This document shows, piece after piece, positions 3,601 through 38,403 of a DNA stretch of 64,000 nucleotides. The position numbers and the translations under genes were made by a program. The notes below the pieces were generated by a model. It ran no database searches. It saw nothing but the letters and a program-made list of their open reading frames with translations, and was not told the DNA's origin. Each line of letters opens with the position of its first letter. Position 1 is the stretch's first letter. The stretch comes from Marsupella aquatica (taxonomy: Eukaryota > Plantae > Marchantiophyta), in contig OZ316898.1 in the NCBI GenBank assembly GCA_973895155.1, forward strand, positions 14,290,330 through 14,354,329, given 5' to 3'.

Positions 3601-5200
3601 AAGCTAACAACCAACGCTCTTTTCGTCGCACAGAGTTCAGGTTGTGCACTTGATCTCTTAACTCTGTGTTGGTCAAATAATCCAAACGTATACCACCAGC
3701 AGTGGTTCGGCTCCCTCTGTGGACTACTGCTTCCGCTTCCCTGTGCACCCGTCCACGAAAATCATCTTCTAGTGTTATAGAATCACATTCACTACAAGTT
3801 AGATTTTCAAATCCTCCTCCATTCTGTGATAACCTCAAGCAATCCTTGTGTCTAAAACAGCCTGCTATACTCACAACACTCTCTCTACTTGGATGGAAAA
3901 CATCCAAGCAACAACTTGGCTCACAATGCCATGTAATTCCCCCAGACTGATCATCTAAAATGCCAGAAATATCATAAGATATACCCTTCCATAACAGTCG
4001 AGGCACACCTCTCTCTACCCATAATCCCCAGCAAAGCAAACTCAGACCAAGATCAACAGATTCACACACACCTGAACCTGAACCTGAACTGCTGCCTGTC
4101 CGGGACCCATCATCTTTAAAGAACTTCAAAATCCCGCTCTGACCAGGATGTAGGTCCCTAGAATCAGTCCTCTTTGGCCTGCCCCTCTTCCCAGACCTCA
4201 AGGCAAGCATTTTTGTGTCATGCCTAGTCTCCAATGCATCCAAGTGATCTCGACTCACTAAGTGTGTCCTCAAATTGGGCTCCAAGGTAAGCTTCTTGGG
4301 GCACAAGTCAGTGTGAAGCATTCCACAGACAGTACATCGAACCTTAAACAGGAAAGACCTGTTTACATACTCAGGAGTACTGGGATCAGGAACAATAGAG
4401 AATAGTTTGCCATCATCCCCAAGCTCAGCATTCAATCGTTGAACTATCTCAACACCTACTTTGATGGCGTCTGCATGATCATATTCTGGCTTCTCAGAGA
4501 TGTCTGCTACCTGAACCAAAGTAGAAGGAATGCCCCTTCTCCGACAATAGTTATCCTTGTGCTTATTGAAGACCAAGTGTTTGGTCTTAAAATTACTAAA
4601 GCAATTGGAGATGGATTTAGGGTTCTGAGAGTTGTCTGCATTGCCATAAGTTTCCCTACATTCAAGACACTCCAGATGCCCTCGAACATCTGTCCCCTCA
4701 TCCCAGGTACGAATTCTCCAATTGTGATCACCATAACCCTTCTTATGTACCCATTTCTCTAACCTCATCCACTCATCTTTCCATAGCTTTGATGGGACAT
4801 CTCCCATCAATTGTGACTCAAAAGAAGCCCTTACAGGGGAGGGTGCTAGTGCCGTTGGCCCCAGTTGTGGTGTCCCAGTATTTGGACCCAATGATGCAGG
4901 AGTGCAAGGATGACAGGGTACTGGTGGGATCCTCCCACCATCTCCAAGTTCTTGTTGTACAACAATAACTCTTCCATCCAGCTCAGACAGATCAATTAAT
5001 TTCTCATGTACAAGTTTCACTCGACCAGGAAGTCTCTCATCCCAAAAATCAAAGTCAAAGTCTAGAGTAGAGGCAATACGAGCCCTAAAATCATGTAGGG
5101 TGTGTCCTTCTTTGAATGACAAAACACAAATTGGTAAATCAGCCTTGTCATCCCCAACTTTGCGTATTAATTTAACAGAGTTGGGTTTAGGGGCTGCCAT
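624..5200 (-). CDS. P-element/THAP9-like DDE transposase, 2 exons (5200-3120, 3015-624), 1490 aa, apparently intact
   Basis: A GT..AG intron at 3119-3016 (104 bp) joins the 694-aa and 773-aa ORFs in frame, giving VIFAEDETRIKERPR-WEAKYDTLIGFCG. P-type motifs follow in order: DET, ASDGD, QDQPHNGKK..N (D-x2-H), DRQN, LGSDCCEIFFS. The N-terminal half has C2H2-like fingers (CLEC..H..H, CTVC..H..H). Confidence 0.85.
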
Positions 5201-5695
5201 TGCAATACAAATCTAGAACATGCATAGCACCATTGCTTTTGGAGTTGATAACAGAAAGACCTGCACAAATACATTTGAAATACACACAAGGGAAACACAT
5301 TAGGATCTTCAAGAGATGCAATGACAACATACACATTCTCATGTAATGTACATAATGTCAGCATACATTTAACAATAGAAGTGCTAATAGGCCAAAACAC
5401 TTTATAATGCAATCCATCATACATGCAAATGTATTCAGTGAAAATCATGATATACCGCTAAAGTTGGATAAAATATCTTTGGACAAAATATCCTTTTCGC
5501 CTGCTTTTCTAACAATTCCCGAAGTTTAGTGCTTCTGCTCATCAAAATGCAGCACTATTAGTGACCTTAATTATGACAAAATGTCAACACTAATAAAATT
5601 GGGTACTACCACCCATGATGCACCTTAAGTATGTGCCTTGCTCATACCCCACTAAGACGTTGAAACCTAAGTAATAGGTTTGTTCATTATTCAGA

Positions 5696-6370
5696 TCATT
5701 GGAGCCATGAAATGTGGTCCCTGATTGGAGTCTTGAGGTGTGGATCAATAGGATGACGGGGGCAATAAAACATCTGTCGCTGTTGTCCATGTGCTTCATG
5801 GTCCCAGATGTCCCTATCATGAGCGAACCCTTTGCTTTTGATCATCTGGAGACAATCTGTATGCCAGGCATTTGGACATCGTAGACATTGTACCATGTTC
5901 TTGACCATCTGACCCTCAAGACTCTGATAACATGTCACACATGTATGCAGTGGGCAGGACTTTGCATCAGCTACCAAACACCCAAAGCAATAAAATCGTA
6001 CACAAAAACGATCAGAGCATTTTCGCACAATTGTAGGTGACGGTCCCACAGTGCGGCACCCATAACACATGGCCTGGTCCTGGTTACAATTTGGGCAAAA
6101 CCATGGCTTCCCTCCATGATGGAGGGGAAGGACTACACAGGGGCAAGAGTCATTAGGGGCTTCATCTCCAACCACATAATGAAATTGCCTGTGACATGGC
6201 CCATCACAAATTACCAACTTCCCACCATGCTCACAAATTGCACAAACATGAGGGCTAGTTTGTAGAATCTCTTGCTCAGAGAACAACGGAATACGCAATA
6301 CCTCTTCCAAAGAGGCTCCTCTGTCAGAGGACTGTGTTGCTTTCTTTATGTTTGAAGTCCTTGTCGGCAT
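5696..6370 (-). CDS. EDM2-like composite (tandem) PHD-finger protein, 224 aa, transposon cargo
   Basis: Motifs CAICEHGGKLVICDGPCHRQFH, WFCPNC..CYGC, CPLHTCVTC, QCLRCPNAWHTDCL and YCPRHPIDPHLKTPIRDHI follow the order and spacing of the EDM2/NSD-type composite PHD region. Confidence 0.8.
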   Translation of the reverse strand: MPTRTSNIKKATQSSDRGASLEEVLRIPLFSEQEILQTSPHVCAICEHGGKLVICDGPCHRQFHYVVGDEAPNDSCPCVVLPLHHGGKPWFCPNCNQDQAMCYGCRTVGPSPTIVRKCSDRFCVRFYCFGCLVADAKSCPLHTCVTCYQSLEGQMVKNMVQCLRCPNAWHTDCLQMIKSKGFAHDRDIWDHEAHGQQRQMFYCPRHPIDPHLKTPIRDHISWLQ

Positions 6371-6686
6371 GGTTCAACTGCAATCATCACAAAGCACATC
6401 ACATATGAGGGGGACATGATGATAGTGAGCAATCCATAGACAAAGATAAGGTTAATCATAGCACCTGCTCCAATGATCTGCAAACCTCCCTCCCAGATGA
6501 AGTCAACTACACAGTGCAACCTGAACACCCACCAACCAAGACATACATAAATACAATGCCAGCTTGCAAAACTTTGCCACATAATGGGAATGAAAAATAT
6601 TCTCATATATCATGGATGGTACAATTGCAGCCTTGCAAACAAAGGCCTAGTCATATATGAACAACGCATCCATGTACTATCAAGGA

Positions 6687-7085: not shown

Positions 7086-8319
7086 GGCACTATTTTTTTA
7101 TACTCGGTGAATGGCCAGACGATTAGACGTGCAATGACAGGCAACTTACAATTCACTAGGTACACTATGTGTTCTAGCAAACTGCTTCACCGCAAGTGTT
7201 GGTGCTCACTGCTGCAAGCGCTGATGACAACCTCTACAATTCCTTTTGCAACCTGTGAACAAAATTGAAACCACCATTCAATTTCTAAGTTTCAAAAACT
7301 TCCCATTACATGAAGACAACCAATTGGCCATGCATGTTACTACAGCAATAAAATAATAACCCAATCGCTCAACAGACCTGAATAGCTAACCTGAATAGGA
7401 TCAAGTTCAGAATCCAGAATGGTAATGCCCTTGCCCAGAAGCTTGAGAAACAAAAGAGAATTTAAAATCAAGCACGAGCGTCATCCACGTCTTGACCAGG
7501 CCCGCCACCCAGTATGGCTGGAGGCTGTGGTCCCCCCTGGCTGAGTAAACACTTAAAGAAGTCTTCTCTTCTAGATGACTTAAAGAAAATTGCAGGAACC
7601 AGCCAACGGGACACCAAGGCATGTAATAGAGAACCAGATTTGTGCGGGTGTGTGGGGGACGACAGAAGTCAAGTTACATGATTTTTTTCCTGGGGTCCAG
7701 CCCATGGATGGAGATCATGTAAGGTGGTCAATCATGGCAAGTGCAATCATTGGAGACCTGTACTCGCGGTTACTCTAACGATGCATCCAAAAAACATGTG
7801 CGTCAAGTCGTCGATGCGGACACAGAAGGAGAGATGAGTATGGACAACGTCGAGACAAATGACGACAATACTGAGCTAGTATTCGGCTGGGAAGTTGGAG
7901 CTGGATCTCAGCAGTGGCTCCAAACCTTATCTGCGAGGGCATGGCGAGCTCTGGAGGACAAAATACTCAAAGAGCTTATCGCCATTCACGGAGCTCAGAA
8001 CAGGAATTTTATAGTTGAAAAGCTAAACGGGCAGATCAGGTGCTTCCTCGTCTATGACCGCTACCAGATCGACTCTAGGTGTGCCATGCGTGATAGATTT
8101 GGGCGTCAAATAGTAGCAAGCAAGCAAGTACGATCGTCAAAGTAGGCAGCGCCTACCTCCCGATTGAGCAACGCAGCAATGCAGCTCCAATCCTGGCACT
8201 CCGGTTTGAGATATCGCAACACTCCCTGCAGTAGCCACCTCCCGTTTCAGCAAGCTAGCAGCTCCCGTTTTAGAAAGCAGCAATGCAACACTCTCGACAC
8301 CCACCTCCCGGAGCGCAAC

Positions 8320-9180
8320 ACTCTTGCTCGATCCTTCACTCCCGGGTTCACTTCAAGCAGCAGCGCAGCTACAAAGTCTCGCTCTCCCCTTCACTCCCGG
8401 GTTCACTTCAAGCAGCAGCGCAGCTGCAAAGTGTCGCTCTCCCCTTCACTCTAATCAGCACACGCAACTGAGAAGTCTCGCTCTCTCCTTCACTCTAATC
8501 AGCGCACGCAACTGAGAAGTCTCGCTCTCCCCTTCACTCTAAGCAGCAGCGCAGCTGAGATGTCTCGCTCTCCCCTTCACTCTAAACAGCAGCGCAGCCA
8601 GGAACTCTTGGTCGATCCTTCACTTCAAGCAGCAACGGCAACAGCACAGCCGAGAGCGCAACACTCTCGCTCTCCCCTTCACTCCAAGTAGCAGCGCTTC
8701 ACTCGATCCTTCGCTCGATCCTTCGCCGAGAACTCTCGCTCTCCCCTTCACTCTCGCTCTCCCCTTCACTCCTTCGCTCGATCCTTCGCCGAGAACTCTT
8801 GCTTGATCTTTCACTCCAGCCGCAGCAGCAACGCAGCTCGATCCTTCTCTGAGAAATCTTGCTTGATCCTTCACTCCAGCCGCAGCAGCAACGCAGCTCG
8901 ATCCTTCACTCCAGCCGCAGCTCGATCCTTCACTCCAGCCGCAGCTCGATCCTTCACTCCAGCCGCAGCTCGATCCTTCACTCCAGCCGCAGCAGCAACG
9001 CAGCTCGATCCTTCACTCCAGCCGCAGCAGCAGTGCAGTCGAGAGCACAACAGGAGTCGATCCTTCACTCCAGCAACAGTGTAGTCGAGAGCACACTCTC
9101 GCTCGATCCAACCTTCACTCCAAGTGCAGTCGAGAGCACACTCTCGCTCGATCCGACCTTCACTCCAAGCAGGAGCACAA
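8320..9180. repeat. Subterminal minisatellite array (core GCTCGATCCTTCACTCCAGCCGCA, 24 bp, plus related 40-60 bp units)
   Basis: Directly visible tandem units built on (C)CTTCACTC and GCAGCAGC motifs. Confidence 0.9.
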
Positions 9181-10470: not shown

Positions 10471-10962
10471 CAAGTTCAAGAGCCTGTCATTCAAGACGTT
10501 CGCTACTGCTAGTCAACTTTGAGCAGTGAAGGTTAGTGGTCTATTGCCTAATATTTTCACGCTGTGGTGCGTCCCATGGCTCCCTAAACCCAAGAAACCC
10601 CCCAGCTCAAGCCGATTCCCGCAGGTTTCGTGCTTGGCGAGGCCGTTTCCGCGGCTTAGCGGCATGGGACGCTGCTAACCTTCTACTACTACTATTAACA
10701 TTTTACACACATATACTGGACAGATCCTTCATCGGGTCATGAGATACGTAGCCGGCCTAATATAGGCCTTCCCCTGTCTTCCCCTGTCTTCTTGTTAGGT
10801 ATGTTTGGATTCCGCCGCCGGAATGATCCCCAATAGGCTTGGTTAAGCCGCTAAGACCTCTCTCAGCTCGACACATCCAACTCTCACTCCCCTGCTTACT
10901 TTCCTTCCTTCTGTTGATGTGGGCACTCTTCACACAAGTTAATGCGACACACAAATAGCAAA

Positions 10963-10985
10963 ATGACTCATTCTGACTGAGTCAT
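10963..10985. promoter_or_regulatory. Inverted pair of TGACTCA (GCN4/AP-1-like) motifs in the LTR
   Basis: ATGACTCA-ttctgac-TGAGTCAT is present in all four LTR copies, ~200 bp upstream (minus strand) of a TATA-like CCTATATTAGG near 10760. Confidence 0.4.
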
Positions 10986-11471
10986 ACCATGCACTTGCCA
11001 TACAAACAGTACATCTCATACACAAGTTCTGCGAACTAAGCCGTGAGGCCAACTCTATTCAGCTCTTAGGCATGAGGAAACATGAATATACACAAGGGTC
11101 ACTGTATGACTAACCGAGAGCTTCTCATACTACTTGATCCCAGCCCGGCTGGTGCAAACTAAAAACTTGCTAAAGAGGCCCTGAGCTCCCCGTTGCCCAG
11201 GTACTTATCCTGGTAGTGGATCCGCCATTCTTTGCATCGTAAGCCTAATCTACTTAACAGTAATCTACTTGCCCGAATCTACCTATGTACAGCAAGGCAG
11301 GAGCACAAGTGTTGCTCCTACCAGTGGGACCGCAATCCCACTAAGCTAAGTGTCAGGGCCGCTCCTGGTTCTGATCCTAATCCTAAACGTGGAGATCCGC
11401 GCCCGCCCTGCCCACTCACGCCTCCTCCCTCCACGTCCGCCCTCCCTAAAAGGAACGGCGCCCTTGCACCG

Positions 11472-14400
11472 TCACGACACCGGTGGTGGATCCTTAATGG
11501 ACGCCCCCAACGCTTCCTCCTCAGCCACTGCCGTAGGTTCATTCTCTGACAGATTACCTGCACTTGACTGAGTCAACTCTCCATCGGCCTGACTGGGTCC
11601 ACCTTCGGCTTCAGCCTCGACACCGGCCTCGGCAATACCCACGGCTTCGGCCTCCCCTTCCCCTAGGGTAGTTGGATCCCTAGCCGTGACCCTGTCTGGG
11701 GTCGGTGCTGGGTCTACCTCCTTGATCACCACGGCCTGTGAAGTCGTATTACTCCTTGACCCTGAAGGTTTCCGCTTCTTCTTCGTTGGTGGCTCGGCAG
11801 CTGGTCCCTTCCCCTTCCCACTTACTTTCGGCACTGGTGCAGGTGGCGCGGCTTGTCCTTCGGCAATTACCACCCCTGGTAACTGGTTTGTCCCAACAGG
11901 AGATGGACCTGCTGCAGCTAAGCATTTAAATACTGCGGCTTGTTTCTTTAGCCGCTCTGTTTGGTTGTCGGCCCGCCGCTGTAGGTTCTCCATCTTCCTC
12001 GTGATTTCCTCCAACTCCTCTTGGGTTTCATCCAGGTCCTTACGTGCCCCCTCCAGCTCGTTTTTGGCCTCCTCCTGCTCCCTGTGGGCTTCCTCCAATT
12101 CCTTCTTCAAGGTAGCCCTCTCCTCCTGGGTTGCTCTTAGCTCCTTGTCGAGCTCTGCAATGATGACAGACTCCATCTGGTTCATCTTGGCGTAAGTCTG
12201 TTCGAGCATCTCGTCCTTCTCCCTTAGGTCGGCCTTGAAGCTGGCCGTCAGGGACGCAAGCTCCTGCTGCAGTGCCATAATCCCTTGATAGGATTTCCCT
12301 AACTCGACCTCCTTTTGCTCAAGGGCTCCGCGGATTTTCTCGAGCTCCCCTTTCAACGCCCATTCCTTTCTTTGGGTCTCCGCCATGGCCCGGCTGTTGG
12401 CTGTTATGTGGGCCTCCTCTGTATTCTTCAGCTCTTGCTTCCACTTCTCCCTCTCTTTGATCATGTCGGCCAACTCTTCCTGCGTCTGAGTCAGTTTATC
12501 CTTGATATTCTGATTATCAGCCTGCGCGGTGTCCAACTGCCCCTGCATGATGTTCAGCTCATGTCGTTTAATCCGCAGTTCATCTTGGGCTTTCTTGGCC
12601 GCCCTTAGATCTTCAATCTCGGCTTCCATCCTCCTAAGCCGCCGAATGACCTCGTCCTTCTTGCTTCTCTCTAAAGCCACCGCTTCTTCTAATTGGTGCT
12701 TCTCCAACTGCTCCCTATGGAAAAAGGGTCCTACCTCCAATTCCTCTCCAAAGATGCCGAGCGCAAGTTCCCCACACATCTCACCATACTCCATGGCTCT
12801 ATTCTTAGCGTAGGTGGAGTAAGTAGAAGTGATCGGCATCGCCCATCGTGGCCTCTGCTCCCAAGCCGTCCTGCGGATCTCTTCAATCGTGGCTAGAGGT
12901 TTGCTTCCTTTTTCGGCTAGCCGCCTGATGTCCTCCGGCCAATCTCCTCCTGGTAAATCCTTTTCCTTAGCCAGGGCGGCCTCCTCCTCCTGCTTGATTC
13001 GCTCCTGAAATTCCTGCACCGTCTGTTTTATGCCGTCGAAGCTCGGGGGAGCAACATCTGGTGGGGGAGACTCAGGGCTACTCTGTTGGTTGGGGTCCCC
13101 TCGCACTACCCTTGGAAGTGTGGGGACAAACTGGCCACAGGTCCTTACTCCTGGAACGTGATGGTCCAACCCATAGCCGGAATTATCATGGCTGCAGTCC
13201 TCCACTGCCTCCTCTACCTCTTGGACGTCCGGCTTCTCCCTCTCCTCTTCGTCGGTAGGAGCTTCAGGCAATTCTGCCTCAGATTCGGAGCTTGAGGTTC
13301 CCACGTACATTCGAACACCTGGCTTGGATTCCGGCCTGATTCTCTCCTTGTCTCCAGCAAAGGGGTTTTCTCTTGTGAGCCGGTGTAGGCCTACCTCTGT
13401 AGTAGTGTCCTGCATTGTTGCCATTGCCGTTGTTGTTGCCGATGCCGATTTCTTTTCTTTCTCCAGTAGTTTCAGCAGACTCTGCATGCCTGGTTGTTGC
13501 ATCGGCAAGTCTTCCTTCCTGGGCCTAAACACCTGCTCGATCGTAGGACTAACAGGTGGTTGAGGCTTCTCAGCCAACGGCCTCGGCGTTGGAGCTTCCT
13601 CGGGTGCCCTTACCTGCAGGGGAAGTACCGGGGCAAAAGTCTGACCTCTGGCATACCGGCACAACAGCGGCATGTGATAGCCAAGCCGCGACACGCTCCC
13701 CATGCCGATTACCTGCTGCTCCTCCTTTAAGATCTTCTTCAATTGGTTGAGGAGGTACCCGTTGTAGTCCCGGCTTGGGTCTGGCCTTTCTGCCAGATAG
13801 ACCTGTGCCTTGCCGATCTCTGCCCTCGGCAAGTTACAATGCATGGTCACCCGCAAGAAGTCGATTATCTCTCCTATGTGCGGGTTGGTGCAGGTGTTCC
13901 GGAAGAAGCCATTCTTCGTTGATGGCCCGGGGAACGACCGGAACTCCTTGTCAGGCAAGGTCTTCCTGGTATCAACTTTGGTCTTATTGCCTATCGGCAA
14001 GCCAAACACTTCGGCAATTACCTTGGGAGTAAGATAGAAATCATTCCCATATATCCTCGTGCAATTGGTCTCGGGTTCCCATGACCCCACGAATTCTAAT
14101 AGGTCTGACTCCGGTACCTCCGGCTTCAGCCATGGTAATCTTACAAAGGCCTCCAAGCCGGATCCGGCCATGAAGCCTTGGTACTTCTTGGTCTGCATGG
14201 CCGTAAAGCATGCATCCTCCTCCCGTGCAAAATGTAGTTGCACCTCCACCGGTAGGGTTGCCGCCCAGCCCTTCCAGGTGTCATCCCTGGTTGGAATGGC
14301 CTTGATGGGATCGACCTCCTCCTCTTCGGCTTCTCCCTGCCTCCTGCTCTGCTGCTCGGCTGGCCTCTTTGGTGCCGCCAACCTCGTTCTTTTTGCCGGG

Positions 14401-14789
14401 GTGGCTTCATCGTTGACGGCCCCCTTCCTCTTCATCTCTGCTGCCGTGGAGGTTTCTCCTAGCACCATTGCTTGGGTCCACCTTTCCGTGCTACCCTTTA
14501 ATTCCCAGTGTATGTCGTTGCAGTTCTTGATGGCCTCTCGGATGCCGACGACGCTGTCTTTGCAAAACAGAAGATCGTCGAGTTGATTGGAAGTAGGCGT
14601 CCACAGGAACTCGTCCTTGATGAGTTCGCCTCCTAAGAAAGCCGTCTTCTGCAGCTCCCACAATCGAGCGAGCTCTTGCCGTTCTCGAGCTGCCCTTTCT
14701 GACTCCTCGTCCTCGTAAGTCTTGATGTACTCAGTTGCCCATTCGAACAGGCATCCCCAGAAATGTGCCGCTTGATTGACGTTGCTCAT
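11472..14789 (-). CDS. LTR-encoded accessory protein, 1105 aa (consensus 1191 aa from ATG 15047): PMD/Transposase_32-like domain + long coiled coil + low-complexity tail
   Basis: Uninterrupted ORF inside the LTR. Motif GLEAFVRLPW..LLEFVGSWEPETNCTRIYGNDFYLTPKVIAEVFGLPIG; ~270-aa E/K-rich heptad region. The N-terminal extension is blocked here by TGA at 14871-14873 but is open in the other copies. Confidence 0.85.
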   Translation of the reverse strand: MSNVNQAAHFWGCLFEWATEYIKTYEDEESERAARERQELARLWELQKTAFLGGELIKDEFLWTPTSNQLDDLLFCKDSVVGIREAIKNCNDIHWELKGSTERWTQAMVLGETSTAAEMKRKGAVNDEATPAKRTRLAAPKRPAEQQSRRQGEAEEEEVDPIKAIPTRDDTWKGWAATLPVEVQLHFAREEDACFTAMQTKKYQGFMAGSGLEAFVRLPWLKPEVPESDLLEFVGSWEPETNCTRIYGNDFYLTPKVIAEVFGLPIGNKTKVDTRKTLPDKEFRSFPGPSTKNGFFRNTCTNPHIGEIIDFLRVTMHCNLPRAEIGKAQVYLAERPDPSRDYNGYLLNQLKKILKEEQQVIGMGSVSRLGYHMPLLCRYARGQTFAPVLPLQVRAPEEAPTPRPLAEKPQPPVSPTIEQVFRPRKEDLPMQQPGMQSLLKLLEKEKKSASATTTAMATMQDTTTEVGLHRLTRENPFAGDKERIRPESKPGVRMYVGTSSSESEAELPEAPTDEEEREKPDVQEVEEAVEDCSHDNSGYGLDHHVPGVRTCGQFVPTLPRVVRGDPNQQSSPESPPPDVAPPSFDGIKQTVQEFQERIKQEEEAALAKEKDLPGGDWPEDIRRLAEKGSKPLATIEEIRRTAWEQRPRWAMPITSTYSTYAKNRAMEYGEMCGELALGIFGEELEVGPFFHREQLEKHQLEEAVALERSKKDEVIRRLRRMEAEIEDLRAAKKAQDELRIKRHELNIMQGQLDTAQADNQNIKDKLTQTQEELADMIKEREKWKQELKNTEEAHITANSRAMAETQRKEWALKGELEKIRGALEQKEVELGKSYQGIMALQQELASLTASFKADLREKDEMLEQTYAKMNQMESVIIAELDKELRATQEERATLKKELEEAHREQEEAKNELEGARKDLDETQEELEEITRKMENLQRRADNQTERLKKQAAVFKCLAAAGPSPVGTNQLPGVVIAEGQAAPPAPVPKVSGKGKGPAAEPPTKKKRKPSGSRSNTTSQAVVIKEVDPAPTPDRVTARDPTTLGEGEAEAVGIAEAGVEAEAEGGPSQADGELTQSSAGNLSENEPTAVAEEEALGASIKDPPPVS

Positions 14790-15162
14790 ACCCTCCTTAG
14801 GTCGATCGTCGGTATCTATTCTCTCCCCGAGTGCTTGCCTAAGCAGCTGACAGTAGTTGGCCTCCCGTAGTCATCTGCCTAGTTCGTGCTCGCAAATGAG
14901 CCACCATCTCCTGCAAGCGCTCCTTACCCCTCTCCTCTGCCGGTCCTTCTTCCCGTTGATCCTTCCTAGCCGCCGACGCTTAACGCGCCCTAACCCTAAT
15001 CGGGTTTTCACCCTCAGCCTTACCTCCGGCCTCTGCCCGGGTTCCATGGTTGCCCCTAATTGTTTATATTTTCCTTGTTTTGTCCGTATACTAAGGTGTT
15101 CCTAGGGTGCCTTCCTGCTTTACCCACTTAACCGGCCGAGTGATTCCTGTCTAGGCATCACA

Positions 15163-15175
15163 TAGCTCCCCACTT
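15163..15175 (-). other. Polypurine tract (AAGTGGGGAGCTA)
   Basis: Purine-rich run abutting the TG of the 3' LTR. It lies inside the integrase reading frame, whose stop codon (15151-15153) falls within the LTR. Confidence 0.75.
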
Positions 15176-18100
15176 AATTGTGAAGCGTCCTCGCGAAGAA
15201 CTTCATCTTCGTCCATATAGTATTCCTTGAGGCGGTCATAATGGATGCGAACTGGATATACCTCTCCCGTAATGTTGGCCAATTGTACGGAGCCATTGGG
15301 GAACATCATGGTTACTCTAAAGGGTCCTAACCAGCAAGTGTAAAGCTTTCCTGGAAACCTACTATACCTACTGTCATAAAGTAGCACAAGATCACCGGTA
15401 TGAATACTAACTACTTTTAACCTTTTATCATACTGCTGCTTCATGATATTCTGTCTATATTCTACTCTCTCGGCTGAAATCATTCTCGCTTCCTCTAAAG
15501 CTTCTAACCTATATTCTCGCTCCTTTAGGCTCTCCTCCGCTGAGGCTCTTTCCTCAATTGTAACTTGAAATGTCGGTATCTCAAGTTGCATGGGTACCAG
15601 GGCTTCTTGTCCAAAGGTTAAGAAGAAGGGTGTATGACCGGTAGTGGATTTATAGGCAAGATTGTAAGCAAAAACAGCAGCAAACAATTTATCATCCCAA
15701 TCGAGTTTGTTCTGAGCTACTGTCTTGTTCAATATCTTTCCTATGATTCCGTTTGCTCGTTCTGTCAACCCGTTTGCCTTTGGATGGTAGGGAGTAGTAG
15801 GCCTATGTTTAACTAAATACTGCTCATTTAAACGACTAATTATATCATTCAAAAAATGGGTTCCTCTATCACTAACTAATTCTAGGGGTGCTCCATACCT
15901 GGTGAAGATCTGCTCATACATGAATCTAGCCGTAGTAATTGCATCATCCTTCGTTGTTGGTCTGGCCTCTACCCATTTAGTTGCATAATCCGTAGCCAGG
16001 ATTATGTACTTGTTCCGTCGAGGGTGGGTCAGTGGTTTCAAAGGTCCAATGTAATCAATACCCCACTTCTCGAATGGTGCCAGAGGTAGAATAGGGTGCA
16101 GTGGATGCCAGGTGGACGCCCTTGGTCCTCCCGCTCGTTGACAAGGATCACATTGTTTGATAAACTGATAGACATCTTTGTGCAAGGTGGGCCACCAGTA
16201 ACCGACATTTAATATCTTCTTAGACGTGGTTACTGGGGCAAAATGTCCTCCGGCCTCCTCTCCATGCATGGCCCGTAGGACTCGTTTTACCTCTCTCTTT
16301 CCCAAACATCTTTGAATCGTGCCGTTGATTCCATGCTTGTGCAGTATGCCTTTAATGCACTGATACTGTCTGACCTTCCGCACAAAGACTGCGGCTTGCT
16401 CTCGGCTTAATCCTGGCTGTAATCTGGAAGTGCTGAGAAATTGTAAAATCTCAGGGTACCATGTACCAGCTATTTCCACAACGAATAGCTCCTCGTCGGG
16501 GAATCGATCATCGATGCAATCCGTGGCAGGTTTACCTGTGATCCTTGAAAAGAAGTCGGCATTGGCATGTAACTTTCCCGGCTTGATCCTCAGCTCATAG
16601 TCAAACTCCTGTAATAGCAAAATCCATCTTGCTACTCTGCCTGTAAGGTCCGGCTTATTGACTAGGTACTTCAAACTTTCATGATCAGTATGAAAGATTA
16701 CCTTGTACCCTAGTAAATAATGCCTAAACTTTTTACAAGAATAAATGACTCCTAATGCTTCTCTTTCCGTGGGAGAGTAGTTCCGTTCGGCATCGGCAAG
16801 CTGACGGCTTGCGAAGTATATGGGATGGTCCCTTCCTTTCTCATCCAACTGACTTAGTACTGAGCCAATACAGAAGCCCGAGACATCTACAAAAACATGA
16901 AAATCTTTGTTCCAGTCCGGTGCTATCATGACTGGGGCCTCTACTAACATCTACTTCAATTCTACCACCGTTGTGACTCGTTCGGGTGTGGGTTCGAAGT
17001 CTGCTCCTGCCTTGAGCATATTGGTTAATGGTAAAGCCAGCTTGGCAAAATCCTTGATGAACCGGCGATAGTAACCAATGCATCCCAAGAAGGATCTTAC
17101 ATCCTTTATGTTCTTAGGTTGCATGATATCTAGCCATACTGCTAGCTTACCTTTGTCAATCTCAATGCCCTTCCTTGATACCTTGTGACCTAGTAGCACC
17201 CCCTCGGTTACTGCAAAAAAACATTTATCTGGGTGTAACTTGAGACCCACCTCTCTACATCTCATGAAGGTTTTCCTGAGGTATTTAGCATGTTTCGATG
17301 CCTTCCCGAATACTACAAAGTCATCAATGAAGATTTCCATGAACTTTCTCAAGTAATCATGAAAAATGTTCACCATTAATCGTTGGAACATAGCTGGTGC
17401 GTTGCAGAGTCCAAACGGCATACGATTGAAGACATAGATCCCCCATTCCGTGATGAAGGCCGTCTTGATTTGGTCTTCCTGCCGAATCCTGATTTGGTTA
17501 TAACCAGAGTATCCATCCATGAATGAATATAGTTCATGACTGGCTACCATGTCTAGTACCATATCAGTAAACGGTAAAGGAAAATGGTCTTTTAATGTTG
17601 CTTCATTCAGCTTCCTGTAATCCTGACAAACCCGGATCTTGGGTTTACCATCGGGTCCAGCTTTATTGGGAACTATCACAATTGGAGACACCCAGTCTGA
17701 ATGCAGGACTGGAGTGATGAATCCAGCTTCCACTAGTTTGTCGATTTCTGTTTTGACCAGCAGGGAATACTTCGGGTTCATCCTTCGAATTGGTTGTTGA
17801 AATGATTTGGCTCCTAACATGAGATCAATTCGATGTTCCCCTAGTGTTGGATCTACTCCCTTTAGATCTTGGTGACTCCATGCAAACACATCCTGAAATT
17901 CAATCAATAAGTCACTGATCTCTTTCTCGAGCTCAGGTGCTAGGTTTCTCCCTAAGTTCAGTTCTCTTCCCTCTCCTAAGTCGAGCTTCCAATATTGCCG
18001 TGCTTGGATCATATTAATCTGCTTCTTCAAATTCGGGTCCAGTTCGGCTTCCAGTCTCTCTAATCTCATACCTCCATAAACTGGGATCTCGGCTGGACTA

Positions 18101-18323
18101 GCCGAGTCGGTCCCTTCCTTGGTGTCCATAGATTGTCCCCTTACCGGTCTATTCGGTTTTGAATTAGTGGTCGGCTCCCCTTCCTGCCTTGGCTCTGGAT
18201 CATGTCTGTCCATCTCATCCACTTCTTGCTCCTGAGAGTTAGGCCGCTGTGCTCTCTCGGCTTCTAATAGGGCCTCAATTTGTTCTGCCCTCGTAATCGG
18301 CTTGTATGCCGATCCCTTGGTAT

Positions 18324-21317
18324 TTAATTCCTTGCCGATGATCGATGGCGTTGTGGACCCCGTCGGCTCTGCCACAACGCCTGCAGAAAATCCACTGTCC
18401 CTGCTACTGCTCCCCACTTAGCCGTTTCATCCAATTGGTCTACATCCTTTACTTCCTCCGGAATTGCAGCTAAAAAGGTGGATTCTATTGTAAAGCAGTC
18501 CTCGACCTCTTCGTCTTCTTCTTCCAAGTCACCTTCCATTGGTTCTTGCCATAATCCGCTGGGGGGTACCTCTGGTCCAAAGACACCTTCTTCGGTTAGG
18601 TTAGTGAGGCATTCTAACCAACGTACTTCATCGGCTGACTCCAGTCCACTGTCGTACCCATCTACTTCCCTTATGCTTTTCCTACGGTCATCCTTAGTGT
18701 CCCAGGATACCGTGATAGAGGGGGTCCCGAAAGTGAACTGCTTTTTACCCCAATCTTCTATTACCTCGGCTAGGTACAGCCATGGCCTACCAATCAATAG
18801 CCGGAATGACGTAGGATTTACCGGCTTCATTACTACATAGTTAATGCTAAAGAAGATACCTCCTATCTCTGTCTTGATGCCGGTTAACACTCCCGTCGGA
18901 ATGACCTGATATCCATTGGCCATGTTCAACACTCTTCCAGTCATCTCCGGTGTTAGACCCCACCCTTTTGCTGTTGAATCAATCATAATACATACCCCTG
19001 ATCCTCCATCGATGGGTACCCGTAGTAATAATTCTCCTTGAATCATTAATGGTAATGCTGGGGCTCCTTGATCTTCTTCTATCATTAGTACGTCGGATCT
19101 GGTTGCTACCTTGGGTAATCTCGGCTTGCCGAGAATAGCCTTCCTTAATTGCTTCCGGAAGTACGGGCTATTTTTCAATAGTTGACCTACTGTTGCCGAG
19201 ACTCTAGATTCTAGTACATCTTTAGCCAGGTCATAGGGAACAATCGGCTTCTCTTCTGGTGGTGTTTCCGTCTTGGATTCGGCCAGTTTTGCCACGCTAG
19301 TCTCCACAGCTGTTGGGTCTTCCGAAGCAAACAATGCTTTTGCTCGTTTTACATCCTTGGCAATGGCTTCGGTATTCTCCAGGGTTTCTAATTCTCTTAG
19401 TTGTTCCTTAACACTAGCCGTAACAGAGGGGTAGAACAACTTAGGATGATCTCGATTGAAGTCGCTATCTTGTGAAGGATTGGTTTCACTGGTGGGCTCA
19501 TGGCTTACCTGTATTGCCGGAGCCCTCCCTTCTCCTTCTGTTGATGTTGACGAAGAGTCGATCCTTTCCTCCGTAACCTTCCCTTTATTTTTGGCCAGCC
19601 CATCCCACCTTTCCTTCCTTCTGGTAGATCGAGTAGAGACCCGGTAGCAATCATGATCTAAATCCTCCTCTGAGAAGGTTGATAGGGCTTCGGCCTCATC
19701 ATCAGATGGTACGAACTCTGCCTCGGCATCCTCTTGCCATCCTAGTTCGATGTGGTTGATTTGAACTCCTCCGGGGGTAGTACCTGGCGGTAAGATCTTG
19801 ATCGGCAAAAGCTTATGATTTGCGGCCAGGCCTGCCAACCAAGTAGGACATTGCCCTAGCATATGACCTTCCTGTCGGCATCCCATACATAGCTGAGCTG
19901 GTTGTCCATCACCCTGTTTGCGTGCATTCGGGCATTCTCTAGCAAAATGGCAAGGTTGACCACAATTATAGCACGCCGCAAATCTTTGCACATTCGGCCT
20001 AGGAGGTACTGACGGGTTCTGAATAATCCGAGGATACATCTCTCCTGGATTGTTCCTTAACCCTGACCATAGAGATGCAGGTCTGTTGGATAGGTCTCGT
20101 GCTCCAGTCTCACTGATGCCAAAATCACTATCAGCGGCATCTCCCAAAAAGTACTCTACTTCTCCCTGACATGGTCTGATCTCGGCCACATGCCGAACAT
20201 GATTAGTATTAAGCTTAGGACACGCATCTTTATGGTGTCCGGTTTTATAACATAAGGCACACCATACAGAGCTATCCTCCTGTACTACCTTCTTCTTTGG
20301 TTTTACCTCTGCAATGATAGCCTTAAGTTGCTCGGTAAGGGCTACGATGTTATCTGGTGGCTTAGTCTCCATCTTGACTTTCGTCTTCCCTCTCCTTCTG
20401 CCCTTCCTTTTCCTAGTTTTTTCTTCTTCAGAACTAGAAGATGACTCACTCTTGCTACTCCCACTATCCGAGCTTGACTTATCACTTCTAGACTTCTTGG
20501 GATGTTTCTTCTTCTTATCTTTTTTCTTATGGGGTGATCCCTCCTCTGATGAGGAACTCTCAGACTTAAGCTGTTTCTTCCGGCTTGTGATATCTGCATT
20601 AATGTATAATTGAATATCCTTAATTGCTTCGGCTAAAGTCTCCGGGTTCTCCTTCCTAATTGCAAAACTCATCTTCTGTGGCAAAGCATTCACCAACCAT
20701 TGAAGTTGCATACCTTCAGATGCATTGGTCTTTGTACGTCTTACCAGTTTCTGAAAGCGTTGCAAGAACTTCCTGAAGGATTTGTTCTCCTTGAACCGAA
20801 GTTGTCCCAACTTCAGCACTGCTAGTTCTGAAGTTCCAATGGGTCGAAACTCCTTAACAAAGAGTGTTTTGAAGATATCCCAGATGGCTTGATCTTCCAC
20901 ATCTAATGCTCTGTACCAAGGCCTAGCCTCACCCTTGAACAGGCCGGGAAGAATCTGCATCTTGATGGCCGATTCTCCATTTGCTGCAGCGGTTCCCTCG
21001 AAATCATCCAACCATTCGTCCGGATCCTCATCTCCTCTCCCATGAAATGCCTTGTAATGTATACGCGACCGCTGGCTCAATCTGGTCCCTGGCCTCTCGT
21101 CTGGCCGTGCCTCTGGTTCCCCCATGTCGGTTGGAGACTCACTTCTCCTTACCGACTCTTCTTCTGGTATGTCTTCTTCGATGCCACTTCCAGTTTCGGA
21201 GCTACCAACTCTTTCTGCCCCTCTCAGTCGCTGTGTATCATGCCACCCGGCGAGCTGCTGCAGTCGAGCTCTCTCCCGTTGAATCACTCTTTCTTCCCTC
21301 GGCGTAAGGTCAGTCAT
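18324..21317 (-). CDS. gag: Gag-protease polyprotein, 997 aa
   Basis: Retrotrans_gag-like capsid (F.G..EDP.EWL..F, A..WY), three CCHC knuckles, aspartic protease (PIDGGSG..LLIGRPWL). Confidence 0.93.
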   Translation of the reverse strand: MTDLTPREERVIQRERARLQQLAGWHDTQRLRGAERVGSSETGSGIEEDIPEEESVRRSESPTDMGEPEARPDERPGTRLSQRSRIHYKAFHGRGDEDPDEWLDDFEGTAAANGESAIKMQILPGLFKGEARPWYRALDVEDQAIWDIFKTLFVKEFRPIGTSELAVLKLGQLRFKENKSFRKFLQRFQKLVRRTKTNASEGMQLQWLVNALPQKMSFAIRKENPETLAEAIKDIQLYINADITSRKKQLKSESSSSEEGSPHKKKDKKKKHPKKSRSDKSSSDSGSSKSESSSSSEEEKTRKRKGRRRGKTKVKMETKPPDNIVALTEQLKAIIAEVKPKKKVVQEDSSVWCALCYKTGHHKDACPKLNTNHVRHVAEIRPCQGEVEYFLGDAADSDFGISETGARDLSNRPASLWSGLRNNPGEMYPRIIQNPSVPPRPNVQRFAACYNCGQPCHFARECPNARKQGDGQPAQLCMGCRQEGHMLGQCPTWLAGLAANHKLLPIKILPPGTTPGGVQINHIELGWQEDAEAEFVPSDDEAEALSTFSEEDLDHDCYRVSTRSTRRKERWDGLAKNKGKVTEERIDSSSTSTEGEGRAPAIQVSHEPTSETNPSQDSDFNRDHPKLFYPSVTASVKEQLRELETLENTEAIAKDVKRAKALFASEDPTAVETSVAKLAESKTETPPEEKPIVPYDLAKDVLESRVSATVGQLLKNSPYFRKQLRKAILGKPRLPKVATRSDVLMIEEDQGAPALPLMIQGELLLRVPIDGGSGVCIMIDSTAKGWGLTPEMTGRVLNMANGYQVIPTGVLTGIKTEIGGIFFSINYVVMKPVNPTSFRLLIGRPWLYLAEVIEDWGKKQFTFGTPSITVSWDTKDDRRKSIREVDGYDSGLESADEVRWLECLTNLTEEGVFGPEVPPSGLWQEPMEGDLEEEDEEVEDCFTIESTFLAAIPEEVKDVDQLDETAKWGAVAGTVDFLQALWQSRRGPQRHRSSARN
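18334..18393 (-). promoter_or_regulatory. Putative -1 programmed ribosomal frameshift signal (G GAT TTT + stem-loop/pseudoknot)
   Basis: Heptamer at 18393-18387 in the gag frame, 5-nt spacer, then a perfect 10-bp stem GGCGTTGTGG/CCACAACGCC. Loop GCCGA can pair with downstream TCGGC. pol is in the -1 frame. Confidence 0.75.
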
Positions 21318-21363
21318 TACCTACGCTTCCGTTCTAACTTCATATCTCACGGCTTAAGAAATG

Positions 21364-21382
21364 CCCCCTCCATCTAGCGCCA
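21364..21382 (-). other. Primer-binding site TGGCGCTAGATGGAGGGGG
   Basis: Starts with TGG 4 nt (TTTT) after the CA end of the 5' LTR. The cognate primer was not identified. Confidence 0.75.
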
Positions 21383-21386
21383 AAAA

Positions 21387-24300
21387 TGTGGTGCGTCCCA
21401 TGGCTCCCTAAACCCAAGAAACCCCCCAGCTCAAGCCGATTCCCGCAGGTTTCGTGCTTGGCGAGGCCGTTTCCGCGGCTTAGCGGCATGGGACGCTGCT
21501 AACCTTCTACTACTACTATTAACATTTTACACACATATACTGGACAGATCCTTCATAGGGTCATGAGATACGTAGCCGGCCTAATATAGGCCTTCCCCTG
21601 TCTTCCCCTGTCTTCCCCTCCGTCTTGTTAGGTATGTTTGGATTCCGCCGCCGGAATGATCTCCAATAGGCTTGGTTAAGCCGCTAAGACCTCTCTCAGC
21701 TCGACACATCCAACTCTCACTCCCCTGCTTACTTTCCTTCCTTCTGTTGATGTGGGCACTCTTCACACAAGTTAATGCGACACACAAATAGCAAAATGAC
21801 TCATTCTGACTGAGTCATACCATGCACTTGCCATACAAACAGTACATCTCATACACAAGTTCTGCGAACTAAGCCGTGAGGCCAACTCTATTCAGCTCTT
21901 AGGCATGAGGAAACATGAATATACACAAGGGTCACTGTATGACTAACCGAGAGCTTCTCGTACTACTTGATCCCAGCCCGGCTGGTGCAAACTAAAAACT
22001 TGCTAAAGAAGAGGCCCTGAGCTCCCCGCTGCCCAGGTACTTATCCTGGTAGTGGATCCGCCATTCTTTGCATCGTAAGCCTAATCTACTTAACAGTAAT
22101 CTACTTGCCCGAATCTACCTATGTACAGCAAGGCAGGAGCACAAGTGTTGCTCCTACCAGTGGGACCGCAATCCCACTAAGCTAAGTGTCAGGGCCGCTC
22201 CTGGTTCTGATCCTAATCCTAAACGTGGAGATCCGCGCCCGCCCTGCCCACTCACGCCTCCTCCCTCCACGTCCGCCCTCCCTAAAAGGAACGGCGCCCT
22301 TGCACCGTCACGACACCGGTGGTGGATCCTTAATGGACGCCCCCAACGCTTCCTCCTTAGCCACTGCCGTAGGTTCATTCTCTGACAGATTACCTGCCCT
22401 TGACTGAGTCAACTCTCCATCGGCCTGACTGGGTCCACCTTCGGCTTCAGCCTCGACACCGGCCTCGGCAATACCCACGGCTTCGGCCTCCCCTTCCCCT
22501 AGGGTAGTTGGATCCCTAGCCGTGACCCTGTCTGGGGTCGGTGCTGGGTCTACCTCCTTGATCACCACGGCCTGTGAAGTCGTATTACTCCTTGACCCTG
22601 AAGGTTTCCGCTTCTTCTTCGTTGGTGGCTCGGCAGCTGGTCCCTTCCCCTTCCCACTTACTTTCGGCACTGGTGCAGGTGGCGCGGCTTGTCCTTCGGC
22701 AATTACCACCCCTGGTAACTGGTTTGTCCCAACGGGAGATGGACCTGCTGCAGCTAAGCATTTAAATACTGCGGCTTGTTTCTTCAGCCGCTCTGTTTGG
22801 TTGTCGGCCCGCCGCTGTAGGTTCTCCATCTTCCTCGTGATTTCCTCCAACTCCTCTTGGGTTTCATCCAGGTCCTTACGTGCCCCCTCCAACTCGTTTT
22901 TGGCCTCCTCCTGCTCCCTGTGGGCTTCCTCCAATTCCTTCTTCAAGGTAGCCCTCTCCTCCTGGGTTGCTCTTAGCTCCTTGTCGAGCTCTGCAATGAT
23001 GACAGACTCCATCTGGTTCATCTTGGCGTAAGTCTGTTCGAGCATCTCATCCTTCTCCCTTAGGTCGGCCTTGAAGCTGGCCGTCAGGGACGCAAGCTCC
23101 TGCTGCAGCGCCATAATCCCTTGATAGGATTTCCCTAACTCGACCTCCTTCTGCTCAAGGGCTCCGCGGATTTTCTCGAGCTCCCCTTTCAACGCCCATT
23201 CCTTTCTTTGGGTCTCCGCCATGGCCCGGCTGTTGGCTGTTATGTGGGCCTCCTCTGTATTCTTCAGCTCTTGCTTCCACTTCTCCCTCTCTTTGATCGT
23301 GTCGGCCAACTCTTCCTGCGTCTGAGTCAGTTTATCCTTGATATTCTGATTATCAGCCTGCGCGGTGTCCAACTGCCCCTGCATGATGTTCAGCTCATGT
23401 CGTTTAATCCGCAGTTCATCTTGGGCTTTCTTGGCCGCCCTTAGATCTTCAATCTCGGCTTCCATCCTCCTAAGCCGCCGAATGACCTCGTCCTTCTTGC
23501 TTCTCTCTAAAGCCACTGCTTCTTCTAATTGGTGCTTCTCCAACTGCTCCCTATGGAAAAAGGGTCCTACCTCCAACTCCTCTCCAAAGATGCCGAGCGC
23601 AAGTTCCCCACACATCTCACCATACTCCATGGCTCTATTCTTAGCGTAGGTGGAGTAAGTAGAAGTGATCGGCATCGCCCATCGTGGCCTCTGCTCCCAA
23701 GCCGTCCTGCGGATCTCTTCAATCGTGGCTAGAGGTTTGCTTCCTTTTTCGGCTAGCCGCCTGATGTCCTCCGGCCAATCTCCTCCTGGTAAATCCTTTT
23801 CCTTAGCCAGGGCGGCCTCCTCCTCCTGCTTGATTCGCTCCTGAAATTCCTGCACCGTCTGTTTTATGCCGTCGAAGCTCGGGGGAGCAACATCTGGTGG
23901 GGGAGACTCAGGGCTACTCTGCTGGTTGGGGTCCCCTCGCACTACCCTTGGAAGTGTGGGGACAAACCGGCCACAGGTCCTTACTCCTGGAACGTGATGG
24001 TCCGACCCATAGCCGGAATTATCATGGCTGCAGTCCTCCACTGCCTCCTCTACCTCTTGGACGTCCGGCTTCTCCCTCTCCTCTTCGTCGGTAGGAGCTT
24101 CAGGCAATTCTGCCTCAGATTCGGAGCTTGAGGTTCCCATGTACATTCGAACACCTGGCTTGGATTCCGGCCTGATTCTCTCCTTGTCTCCAGCAAAGGG
24201 GTTTTCTCTTGTGAGCCGGTGTAGGCCTACCTCTATAGTAGTGTCCTGCATTGTTGCCGTTGCCGTTGTTGTTGCCGATGCCGATTTCTTTTCTTTCTCC

Positions 24301-25509
24301 AGTAGTTTCAGCAGACTCTGCATGCCTGGTTGCTGCATCGGCAAGTCTTCCTTCCTGGGCCTAAACACCTGCTCGATCGTAGGACTAACAGGTGGTTGAG
24401 GCTTCTCAGCCAACGGCCTCAGCGTTGGAGCTTCCTCGGGTGCCCTTACCTACAGGGGAAGTACCGGGGCAAAAGTCTGACCTCTGGCATACCGGCACAA
24501 CAGCGGCATGTGATAGCCAAGCCGCGACACGCTCCCCATGCCGATTACCTGCTGCTCCTCCACCGGTAGGGTTGCAAAATGTAGTTGCACCTCCACCGGT
24601 AGGGTTGCCGCCCAGCCCTTCTAGGTGTCATCCCTGGTTAGAATGGCCTTGATGGGATCGACCTCCTCCTCTTCGGCTTCTCCCTGCCTCCTGCTCTGCT
24701 GCTCGGCTGGCCTCTTTGGTGCCGCCGACCTCGTTCTTTTTGCCGGGGTGGCTTCATCGTTGACGGCCCCCTTCCTCTTCATCTCTACTGCCGTGGAGGT
24801 TTCTCCTAGCACCGTTGCCTGGGTCCACCTTTCCGTGCTACCCTTTAATTCCCAGTGTATGTCATTGCAGTTCTTGATGGCCTCTCGGATGCCGACGACG
24901 CTGTCTTTGCAAAACAGAAGATCGTCGAGTTGATTGGAAGTAGGCGTCCACAAGAACTCGTCCTTGATGAGTTCACCTCCTAAGAAAGCCGTCTTCTGCA
25001 GCTCCCACAATCGAGCGAGCTCCTGCCGTTCTCGAGCTGCCCTTTCTGACTCCTCGTCCTCGTAAGTCTTGATGTACTCAGTTGCCCGTTCGAACAGGCA
25101 TCCCCAGAAATGTGCCGCTTGATTGACGTTGCTCATACCCTCCTTAGGTCGATCGTCGGTATCTATTCTCTCCCCGAGTGCTTGCCTAAGCAGCTGACAG
25201 TAGTTGGCCTCCCGTAGTCGTCTGCCTAGTTCGTGCTCGCAAATGAGCCACCATCTCCTGCAAGCGCTCCTTACCCCTCTCCTCTGCCGGTCCTTCTTCC
25301 CGTTGATCCTTCCTAGCCGCCGACGCTTAACGCGCCCTAACCCTAATCGGGTTTTCACCCTCAGCCTTACCTCCGGCCTCTGCCCGGGTTCCATGGTTGC
25401 CCCTAATTGTTTATATTTTCCTTGTTTTGTCCCTATACTAAGGTGTTCCTAGGGTGCCTTCCTGCTTTACCCACTTAACCGGCCGAGTGATTCCTGTCTA
25501 GGCATCACA
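21387..25509 (-). repeat. 5' LTR (4123 bp) with ~0.5-kb internal deletion; LTR ORF broken (25394-24621, 24413-22308)
   Basis: Colinear with the 3' LTR except for loss of the segment matching ~13726-14225 and TAG stops at 24621-24623 and ~24450-24452. Confidence 0.95.
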
Positions 25510-26273
25510 CACGCCCTTGGAGATTGCTCATCGTCTTTCCTTGTTGTTTGTCTGGGTTGACACATGTCCTGCCTCATCTGTGCTGGCATTGTACATCCTG
25601 CTTGTTTGTTGTCACTGCCTATTAGTAAACTGTTCATGGTTGTTACTCGGTACTTGTTGACTATAGCAGTTTGGACCTGCTCATCGCTTGCAGTTGTTGA
25701 TTGTAAGACTGAACAATGTCACAGTATAGGTCAACATTATTGTTTGCAAGAGCTACATTTTAAATTTGGGCTGGCATCCCCCACTCGCATCCGGAAGGAC
25801 ATTTGTCATCTTCATTTTCCCCACGTTGTGGAGGCTTGTCTCCATTGTCACACCCAAACATGTCATTGTTGTAGGGGAGGTGACTCAAACATGTAGTGCA
25901 GATTGAAGCACAGTATATGGCAAGAATGGCATGGGGCGGTTGCCTAGCGTGGAATACTTGTCATTTCATCAATGATTGTGTCTGTGGTGGGACACATCCA
26001 GCATCTGCCCATGATGGTGATGCCATTCAAGTTGAGCTGACTTCTGATTCTACATTGCTCACATTGCAGGATGGCCGGATCAAAGGAGCCCACAGGGAAG
26101 TGATGCCCCTGGTGGAGGCTACTGGCTGTGATTGCTGGTGGACTGTTGCTCCTTCTGGTACATCACATGCCTGCCCCTAATTTTTGAAGGTAATTTTGCA
26201 GATCTTGTTCAACATTGCACACATTGCTCATCAGCTGCTAGATCCAAGATTTGGGCATAGGGAGCACCTTCGT

Positions 26274-38136: not shown

Positions 38137-38403
38137 TGCAACTCTATTTCAATCAACGTCGATCAAGTGTAGGAAACTTTGAAGATCGACTTCACTCTGA
38201 AGATCGACTTCACTCTGAAGATTGACTTCACTCTAGGCGTACGCGTAGCAGAAATAGTGAAATACAGAGGGGGACTTAAAACAAAAAGGGAGTATTACAC
38301 CAAGCACACTCACTGCCTCTCTCGTTCATTGTTTGTTTGAATCGCCCGCCCGCGCGTGTTGAAGGTAAAGGCTGCGGGTTCATCGTCCGTTTGAATCGCC
38401 CGC

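Follow-up and report, generated by a model that had tools for sequence, protein, structure and literature searches.

The LTR and its open reading frame

This locus raises the question of whether a complete protein-coding gene can reside inside the long terminal repeat (LTR) of a plant retrotransposon and, if so, how it came to be there and what it encodes. The window, a stretch of 64,000 nucleotides from the liverwort Marsupella aquatica, contains a complete Ty3/Gypsy element on the minus strand (10563-25509) together with two solo LTRs. The 3' LTR of the element (copy A, 10563-15162, minus strand) is 4600 nt long and the 5' LTR (copy B, 21387-25509, minus strand), which carries a 489-nt in-frame deletion, is 4123 nt; solo LTRs C (30478-35116, minus strand) and D (38404-43006, plus strand) measure 4639 and 4603 nt. 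All four have TGTG..CACA ends, and sequence comparison within the window gave identities of 96-99%. A 5-bp target site duplication (TSD) borders each of the three insertions: GCGTG for the full element (10558-10562 and 25510-25514, flanking B..A), CATAT around C (30473-30477 and 35117-35121) and CCCGC around D (38399-38403 and 43007-43011), with both solo LTRs devoid of an internal region. The target region of C is also present as an uninserted tandem duplicate (29664-30377), in which the empty site (29764-29768) holds the TSD 5-mer a single time. The polypurine tract (PPT) adjoins copy A, and a PBS-like 18-mer starts 4 nt past copy B. The limits of the 4.6-kb LTR are thus confirmed by the TG..CA ends, PPT, PBS and three TSDs on which the sequence-only reading had relied, and by the empty site besides.

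Two observations might raise the suspicion that the unit is no LTR but a small element in its own right, a segmental duplication or a product of misassembly: copy B lies nearer to solo LTR D (K2P 0.0066) than to A, the other LTR of its own element (0.0103), and B and D have a stop codon in common. The distinct TSD pairs, the empty site, and a PPT and PBS placed precisely at the LTR borders rule this out for practical purposes; moreover, the unit lacks inner terminal repeats, and at least half of its words were found in 6 public DNA runs from 4 studies.

A sense ORF opens with the ATG at nt 116 of the LTR; its stop is codon 1192 (numbering of A and D), giving 1191 codons. It occupies 11472-15047 in A, 25394-22308 in B and 35001-31378 in C (all minus strand), and 38519-42094 in D (plus strand). 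Each copy carries one or two premature stops (A59; B258 and B315; C655; D478), B315 being the same site as D478, and none carries a frameshift; the indels, the deletion in B and a 48-nt insertion in C, are in frame. No codon site reads as a stop in all four copies, which bears out the earlier claim of a 1191-codon consensus starting some 115 nt into the LTR. The longest stop-free run is 1132 codons; when the bases of the LTR were shuffled 1000 times, it averaged 176 codons and never exceeded 397. Because homologues begin near codon 90, Met87 may be the true start; from there (14789-11472, minus strand) copy A is open for 1105 codons without interruption. The proposed gene size of about 3.6 kb therefore holds from the first ATG and would become 3.3 kb from Met87. 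A check for selection had also been suggested: silent changes are in excess among the family variants (19 of 35, against 9.2 expected), and purifying selection acts on the 5' third of the ORF. Because the ORF lies wholly inside the LTR, the gene is present twice per full element and once per solo LTR. A selected gene of more than 3 kb that is part of an LTR has its dose doubled and can outlast deletion of the element.

Affinities of the element

The Pfam matches of the internal region follow the Ty3/Gypsy order on the minus strand, from gag to reverse transcriptase (RT), RNase H and integrase. The gag (Retrotrans_gag, zinc knuckle) and protease-position region spans 18324-21320, with frame changes ahead of RT (16951-18417); one stop separates RT from RNase H in this copy, and the RNase H and integrase region (15151-16950) ends in a stop codon no more than 12 nt into the LTR. 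The terminal PPT (15163-15197, minus strand) is accompanied by a lineage-wide upstream motif, to which it is the sole match in the window. The PBS-like 18-mer (21365-21382, minus strand) may be of the tRNA-Asn type, and that of the related loci L001, L003 and L007 of the tRNA-Asp type; in Athila elements the PBS is for tRNA-Asp or tRNA-Asn.

Several other features resemble those of Athila (REXdb non-chromovirus|OTA|Athila; PMC6317226). The TSD is 5 bp, as in 95% of Athila elements; no additional RNase H was seen in the full element, a trait separating Athila from most Tat elements; and the size of 14.9 kb falls inside the Athila range of 7.3-22.8 kb (PMC6317226). The PBS is offset from the LTR, by 4 nt here and by 5 nt in Diaspora/Calypso (PMC1142308), and an extra ORF follows pol whose predicted domain is remotely ATHILA/Transposase_32-like. 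In contrast to Athila, this ORF lies downstream of the PPT and inside both LTRs rather than between pol and the 3' LTR, and its protein has no membrane helix. The moss non-chromovirus Phygy (PMC6317226) shares a bryophyte host and a polyprotein occupying nearly the whole internal region, but it has a 4-bp NCGN TSD, a length of 7.7-10 kb, no recorded extra ORF and a PBS that is mostly Trp. LTR length is comparable in Ogre (over 5000 bp) and BAGY-1 (4200 bp), whose LTRs, unlike those here, have no gene described in the accessible portion of PMC1142308; long non-coding regions of that group often hold tandem repeats (PMC6317226).

We found no case of a gene encoded in the LTR of a plant element in the literature searched. 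To our knowledge, extra ORFs are assigned to the internal region in reviews of the LTR retrotransposons of plants, which credit solo LTRs with no more than promoter function. Accessory genes in or overlapping the U3 of an LTR are familiar from MMTV sag, lentiviral nef and foamy-virus bet. As with sag, the gene described here is LTR-encoded and copied to both ends at every replication; the retroviral genes encode proteins that are unrelated and a few hundred residues long, whereas this one has about 1100-1190 codons, is carried by a plant retrotransposon and persists whole in solo LTRs.

Transcription and origin of the in-LTR gene

The sequence-only reading had placed the ORF in U3 on the basis of a TATA-like motif about 200 bp from the LTR end. 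Such a motif exists (TATATT, 10759-10764, minus strand) and is a weak candidate promoter for genomic RNA; the best TATA match of the LTR is TATAAA at nt 95-100 (15063-15068, minus strand), present in all four copies ahead of the ORF and a candidate promoter for it. The weakness of the first motif and the presence of the better one mean that TATATT fails to establish the U3 placement, although the ORF probably does lie there.

Were genomic RNA instead to start at the LTR front, the ORF would be a first cistron in R/U5, as the best TATA match and the 5' extra ORFs of Tekay (33%) and Ogre (21%) (PMC6317226) might suggest. This we regard as quite improbable: the standard mechanism would then call for 4.5 kb of minus-strand strong-stop DNA and for translation of gag behind a 3.3-kb ORF, the homologous ORF of L001 sits 3' of pol before a ~1-kb LTR, and L007 has TATAAAA 159 nt ahead of its PBS. 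A more serious contender, if still the lesser one, keeps the ORF in U3 but has it expressed like an env-position gene, and only where it sits in a full element's 3' LTR, through a spliced or subgenomic RNA starting upstream in the leader or pol; the copies in 5' and solo LTRs would be carried along unexpressed. The ORF begins 104-360 nt beyond the pol stop, relatives hold it behind pol in either layout, and the sense 3' ORFs of barley Bagy2 are reported to be spliced (PMC7264820); against this, TATAAA is found in 4 of 4 copies, in relatives some 170-770 nt of non-coding spacer still separates the tract from the ORF, and the accessory gene of Grande, although antisense, has its own promoter (PMC7264820).

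As to origin, we asked how the homologous ORF is placed in related metagenome loci. Among the 12 related loci carrying the terminal PPT motif, the ORF is internal, before the motif, in 3 and downstream in 8; these eight appear to share the in-LTR layout. The architecture proposed earlier, a whole ORF in a TSD-defined LTR that is kept in solo LTRs, is supported; this family is apparently not alone in having it.

Our main reading, to which we assign a probability of about 0.6, is that this is an Athila-like Ty3/Gypsy element whose accessory gene came to lie wholly in the 4.6-kb LTR, likely because plus-strand priming moved from a site behind the gene to one directly behind pol. The ancestor would have had the order pol, purine tract, ORF, terminal PPT and ~1-kb LTR; once the tract upstream had taken over as terminal PPT, the spacer and ORF would have turned into U3 ahead of the old ~0.9-kb LTR. 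We give this ancestral order and switch slightly better than even odds as the source of the U3 gene. Standard reverse transcription would then place the ORF in both LTRs, and LTR-LTR recombination would leave it behind in solo LTRs.

It is rather unlikely that no PPT shift took place, the gene having been inserted as a cassette into a short LTR, or its place in the LTR being ancestral. The motif past pol is of the terminal type, the tree, built on unlabeled relatives only, leaves the order of the two states undecided, and a possible decayed former PPT just past the ORF stop (11430-11465, minus strand) was picked by eye and is not significant (p about 0.2). However, the order pol-spacer-ORF is identical in both layouts, L012 and L013, which group with angiosperm proteins, have the ORF internal, and the LTR shows neither an internal duplication nor a second LTR start. 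Because the same lineage has both layouts, LTR border movement and gene capture can now be tested by comparison.

The predicted protein

The ORF protein is predicted to comprise a small conserved helical block near its N terminus (codons ~90-175; 14523-14780), common to Logan proteins P0007 and P0009, a conserved globular domain of ~220 aa (13626-14288), and a long coiled coil rich in E, K, Q and R (approximately 11868-12710; all minus strand), beyond which lies a disordered tail containing the basic cluster KKKRK. The coiled coil agrees with the earlier description. The label of a plant mobile domain (PMD) or Transposase_32-like domain stands only as a remote similarity: the protein has no Pfam match (ATG16, over the coiled coil, falls below cut-off), with none to Transposase_32 (PF20167) at E<=1, and neither it nor the homologues scanned match PMD (PF10536). 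Homologue L012 reaches 21.4 bits against Transposase_32, under the Pfam gathering score of 45 bits. Feature-level similarity in Atlas to the Transposase_32/ATHILA group is 0.86-0.87 (0.92 for one homologue), with a link by hhalign (E 4e-13). On weak evidence, the domain may be related to Transposase_32/ATHILA and to VANC21. A similar domain is also present in a DNA transposon within the window.

Against the comparison set of VANC21 (DUF1985) of VANDAL DNA transposons and the PMD proteins MAIN/MAIL1, as described in PMC5735166, PMC13547354 and 10.1101/2024.09.27.615353, the ORF protein has no sequence-level match, and no array of target-like tandem repeats was found in the LTR. We tentatively suggest, at a little under even odds, that the product is a nuclear, oligomeric DNA- or chromatin-binding factor of the Transposase_32/ATHILA/PMD/VANC group, expressed from a promoter at the LTR front, which would help the family escape host silencing. 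Somewhat less probable is a structural or targeting role (particle component or integration tether) or an env-like one. The long predicted coiled coil would suit it, as would the Athila domain, described in PMC13547354 as predicted to be pentameric through coiled coils and poorly characterized in function. Host PMD proteins, moreover, function in silencing (PMC5418596), so that a PMD-like fold would fit an effect in either direction. An env-like role is disfavoured by the lack of a membrane helix (highest 19-residue hydropathy 0.82), and a structural role by the similar domain in the DNA transposon, an element that makes no particles.

If the product is VANC/PMD-like, anti-silencing proteins of transposons would extend to bryophyte retrotransposons. 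Solo-LTR formation is normally the host's route to element removal. It is a bolder and improbable extension that, throughout an entire clade of Athila-like elements in bryophytes, the LTR has become a self-contained cassette of promoter, VANC/PMD-like anti-silencing gene and 3' end, such that solo-LTR formation would seed extra copies of the factor keeping the family active. Solo LTRs of this kind also pose an annotation hazard, being liable to be called as orphan host genes.

A gene inside the LTR

Self-comparison of the window revealed four copies of one 4.1-4.6-kb repeat, with identities of 96-99%. Two of these, B (21387-25509) and A (10563-15162), are the 5' and 3' LTRs of a minus-strand element (10563-25509) and enclose a 6224-nt internal region coding for gag, RT, RNase H and integrase on that strand, in the gene order of Ty3/Gypsy; C (30478-35116, minus strand) and D (38404-43006, plus strand) are solo LTRs. 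All four copies start with TGTG and end with CACA, and the full element, C and D each have a separate 5-bp target duplication. A 714-nt sequence is duplicated in tandem around C: one unit holds C itself, and the other carries C's target 5-mer once and represents the empty site. A purine tract directly adjoins LTR A, the integrase stop codon falls in the first 12 nt of the LTR, and a PBS-like 18-mer, which we take to be of the tRNA-Asn type, begins 4 nt past LTR B. Because termini, target duplications, empty site, PPT and PBS agree, the LTR limits are shown rather than assumed; the sequence-only reading had drawn the same limits from TG..CA, PBS, PPT and three TSD pairs, to which the empty site is now added. 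Between the LTRs (15163-21386) the reading frame shifts from the protease region to RT, which could be programmed, and a single stop separates RT from RNase H; by its polyprotein, the copy looks defective.

There is a real gene inside this LTR. A sense ORF had been claimed about 115 nt into the LTR, open for 1191 codons, and we do find an ATG at LTR nt 116 and a frame that closes at codon 1192 in A and D, but the start may instead be Met87, because homologues of the protein begin near codon 90, one short predicted protein with its own Met. From Met87, copy A is uninterrupted over 1105 codons. Premature stops occur at A59, C655, D478, B258 and B315 (the last at the same site as D478), and the only two indels of the ORF, 489 nt absent from B and 48 nt added in C, are both in frame. 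The longest stop-free run is 1132 codons in A, versus a maximum of 397 in 1000 shuffles. TATAAA is present at LTR nt 95-100 in all four copies; the TATA-like motif previously noted about 200 bp from the LTR end exists as TATATT, but is the weaker of the two. Judged from the sequence, a transcript starting about 30 nt past TATAAA would miss ATG116 and suit Met87.

MMTV sag is a retroviral precedent for an LTR-encoded gene. In plants, the main text of PMC7264820 puts extra ORFs between the LTRs, and the portions seen of PMC11963269, PMC11728184, PMC1142308 and PMC12885004 describe no gene within an LTR. We found no plant example in the literature covered, which takes in few subscription papers, and PMC6317226 without its per-element table.

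Selection and exchange among copies

Comparison of the four copies in the window gave 90 differences that could be classified, of which 37 are silent; a null matched for mutation class predicts 31 (P=0.11). The excess is not significant, which is what one would see if most changes postdate insertion. For variation across the family, contigs from four public DNA runs were aligned to codons 1-460 of copy D, the best-supported 40 of 236 variant positions were used, and 5 variants private to D were removed. Of the remaining 35, unphased and confined to the 5' third of the ORF, 19 are silent versus 9.2 expected (P=0.0004), so that selection, on which the sequence-only reading had made its claim depend, is detected in that third. 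Protein homologues at E<=0.001 comprise 20 representatives (Calypogeia fissa contributes two, and one is probably spurious), the best being 41% identical over 225 residues. This conservation says the same as the excess of silent changes, and both point to selection on the ORF.

What sets copy C apart lies mostly in one stretch around the ORF end, where LTR nt 3500-4000 hold 21 private changes in 500 nt and the 48-nt insertion; it is like a recombinant with another subfamily. B and D, 13 kb apart, have five variants in common, one of them a stop, and are separated by a K2P distance of 0.0066 versus 0.0103 for B and its partner A, which suggests gene conversion or mixed templates. Since B is nearer to D than to A, LTR-pair dating is unreliable here.

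Relatives and a possible route into the LTR

By RNase H-integrase, the nearest named relatives belong to two liverworts, Calypogeia fissa (54-64%) and Riccia sorocarpa (47-54%), which points to a liverwort-like host. Compared with the lineage table of PMC6317226, the 5-bp TSDs, lack of an additional RNase H and 14.9-kb length fit Athila and do not match Phygy; according to PMC10508981, the extra RNase H is also absent from some liverwort Tat clades. We call the element Athila-like and do not assign it to Athila proper.

Integrase alignment retrieved 62 metagenome loci, the closest of which carry a sense ORF downstream of pol. A profile made solely from the domain in the window and the proteins matching it finds the ORFs of five relatives (E 1e-6 to 5e-3) and aligns to a profile of the relatives' ORFs with a probability of 97.9%; reversed sequences yielded no matches. 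In the window, a 35-nt motif ends exactly at the proven LTR start; the same motif is present a single time in each of 12 of the 62 loci and nowhere else in the 627 kb scanned. Short LTRs with the ORF internal in most family members had been named as the contrary outcome; the ORF is internal in three of the 12 (L001, L012, L013), where the motif follows the ORF, a different purine tract follows pol, and, in L001, about 1.0 kb lies between motif and PBS. In the other nine the motif is directly behind pol, with the ORF or a fragment downstream in eight, four of which had contributed to the detecting profile; the ninth, L010, is too short to show it. The bases past the motif in L003 and L007 are an inverted repeat of those ahead of the PBS, and L006 and L008 show no second motif in the 3.6 kb continuing past the first. 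As these loci come without TSDs, we infer their long LTRs. In a quick integrase tree with 30 rows, seven of these loci form one well-supported group separate from that of the window; two changes are required for either layout, and the base is unordered.

The PPT determines where the LTR begins on the left, and both ends of the element receive a copy of the U3 of the 3' LTR. We infer that an L001-like ancestor switched plus-strand priming to the tract behind pol, by which the spacer and ORF would have joined U3 in front of the old LTR. The roughly 0.9-kb non-coding tail of the LTR fits an old LTR behind a captured ORF. A purine stretch 14-31 nt past the ORF stop, first chosen by eye, is the top match within the LTR to a profile of the upstream tracts, at a non-significant p of about 0.2.

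Eight loci (L001, L002, L009, L011, L012, L013, L017 and L023), including the three with the ORF internal, have a second, non-terminal polypurine tract just after pol, which could be an extra plus-strand priming site. The extra ORF of L013 (L013:2663-5098) runs past its coiled coil into a region of about 400 residues that has many Cys, His and aromatic residues and no Pfam match above cut-off.

Other features of the window

A decayed CACTA-type element occupies 49350-56013 (plus strand), with a Transposase_21 match at 50970-51770. Its ORF at 53902-56013, broken by one stop, encodes the same remote domain as the LTR ORF (E 2e-5 to 3e-5), with an acidic linker and a stretch resembling a coiled coil behind it; by this similarity, a DNA transposon and a retrotransposon of this genome may have the accessory domain in common. 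SNF2 and helicase-C fragments lie directly behind the CACTA-type element (56340-58167, plus strand). Two long minus-strand ORFs at 624-5212, of 804 and 698 aa and with no Pfam match, adjoin a PHD-finger ORF (5696-6373), and 3714-4663 has a 67% inverted match to 59688-60632; the 624-5212 region is possibly an unclassified DNA transposon. Tandem arrays lie at 8239-9169 (units of about 24-60 nt), 28125-28792 (about 158 nt) and 47108-47564 (about 184 nt).
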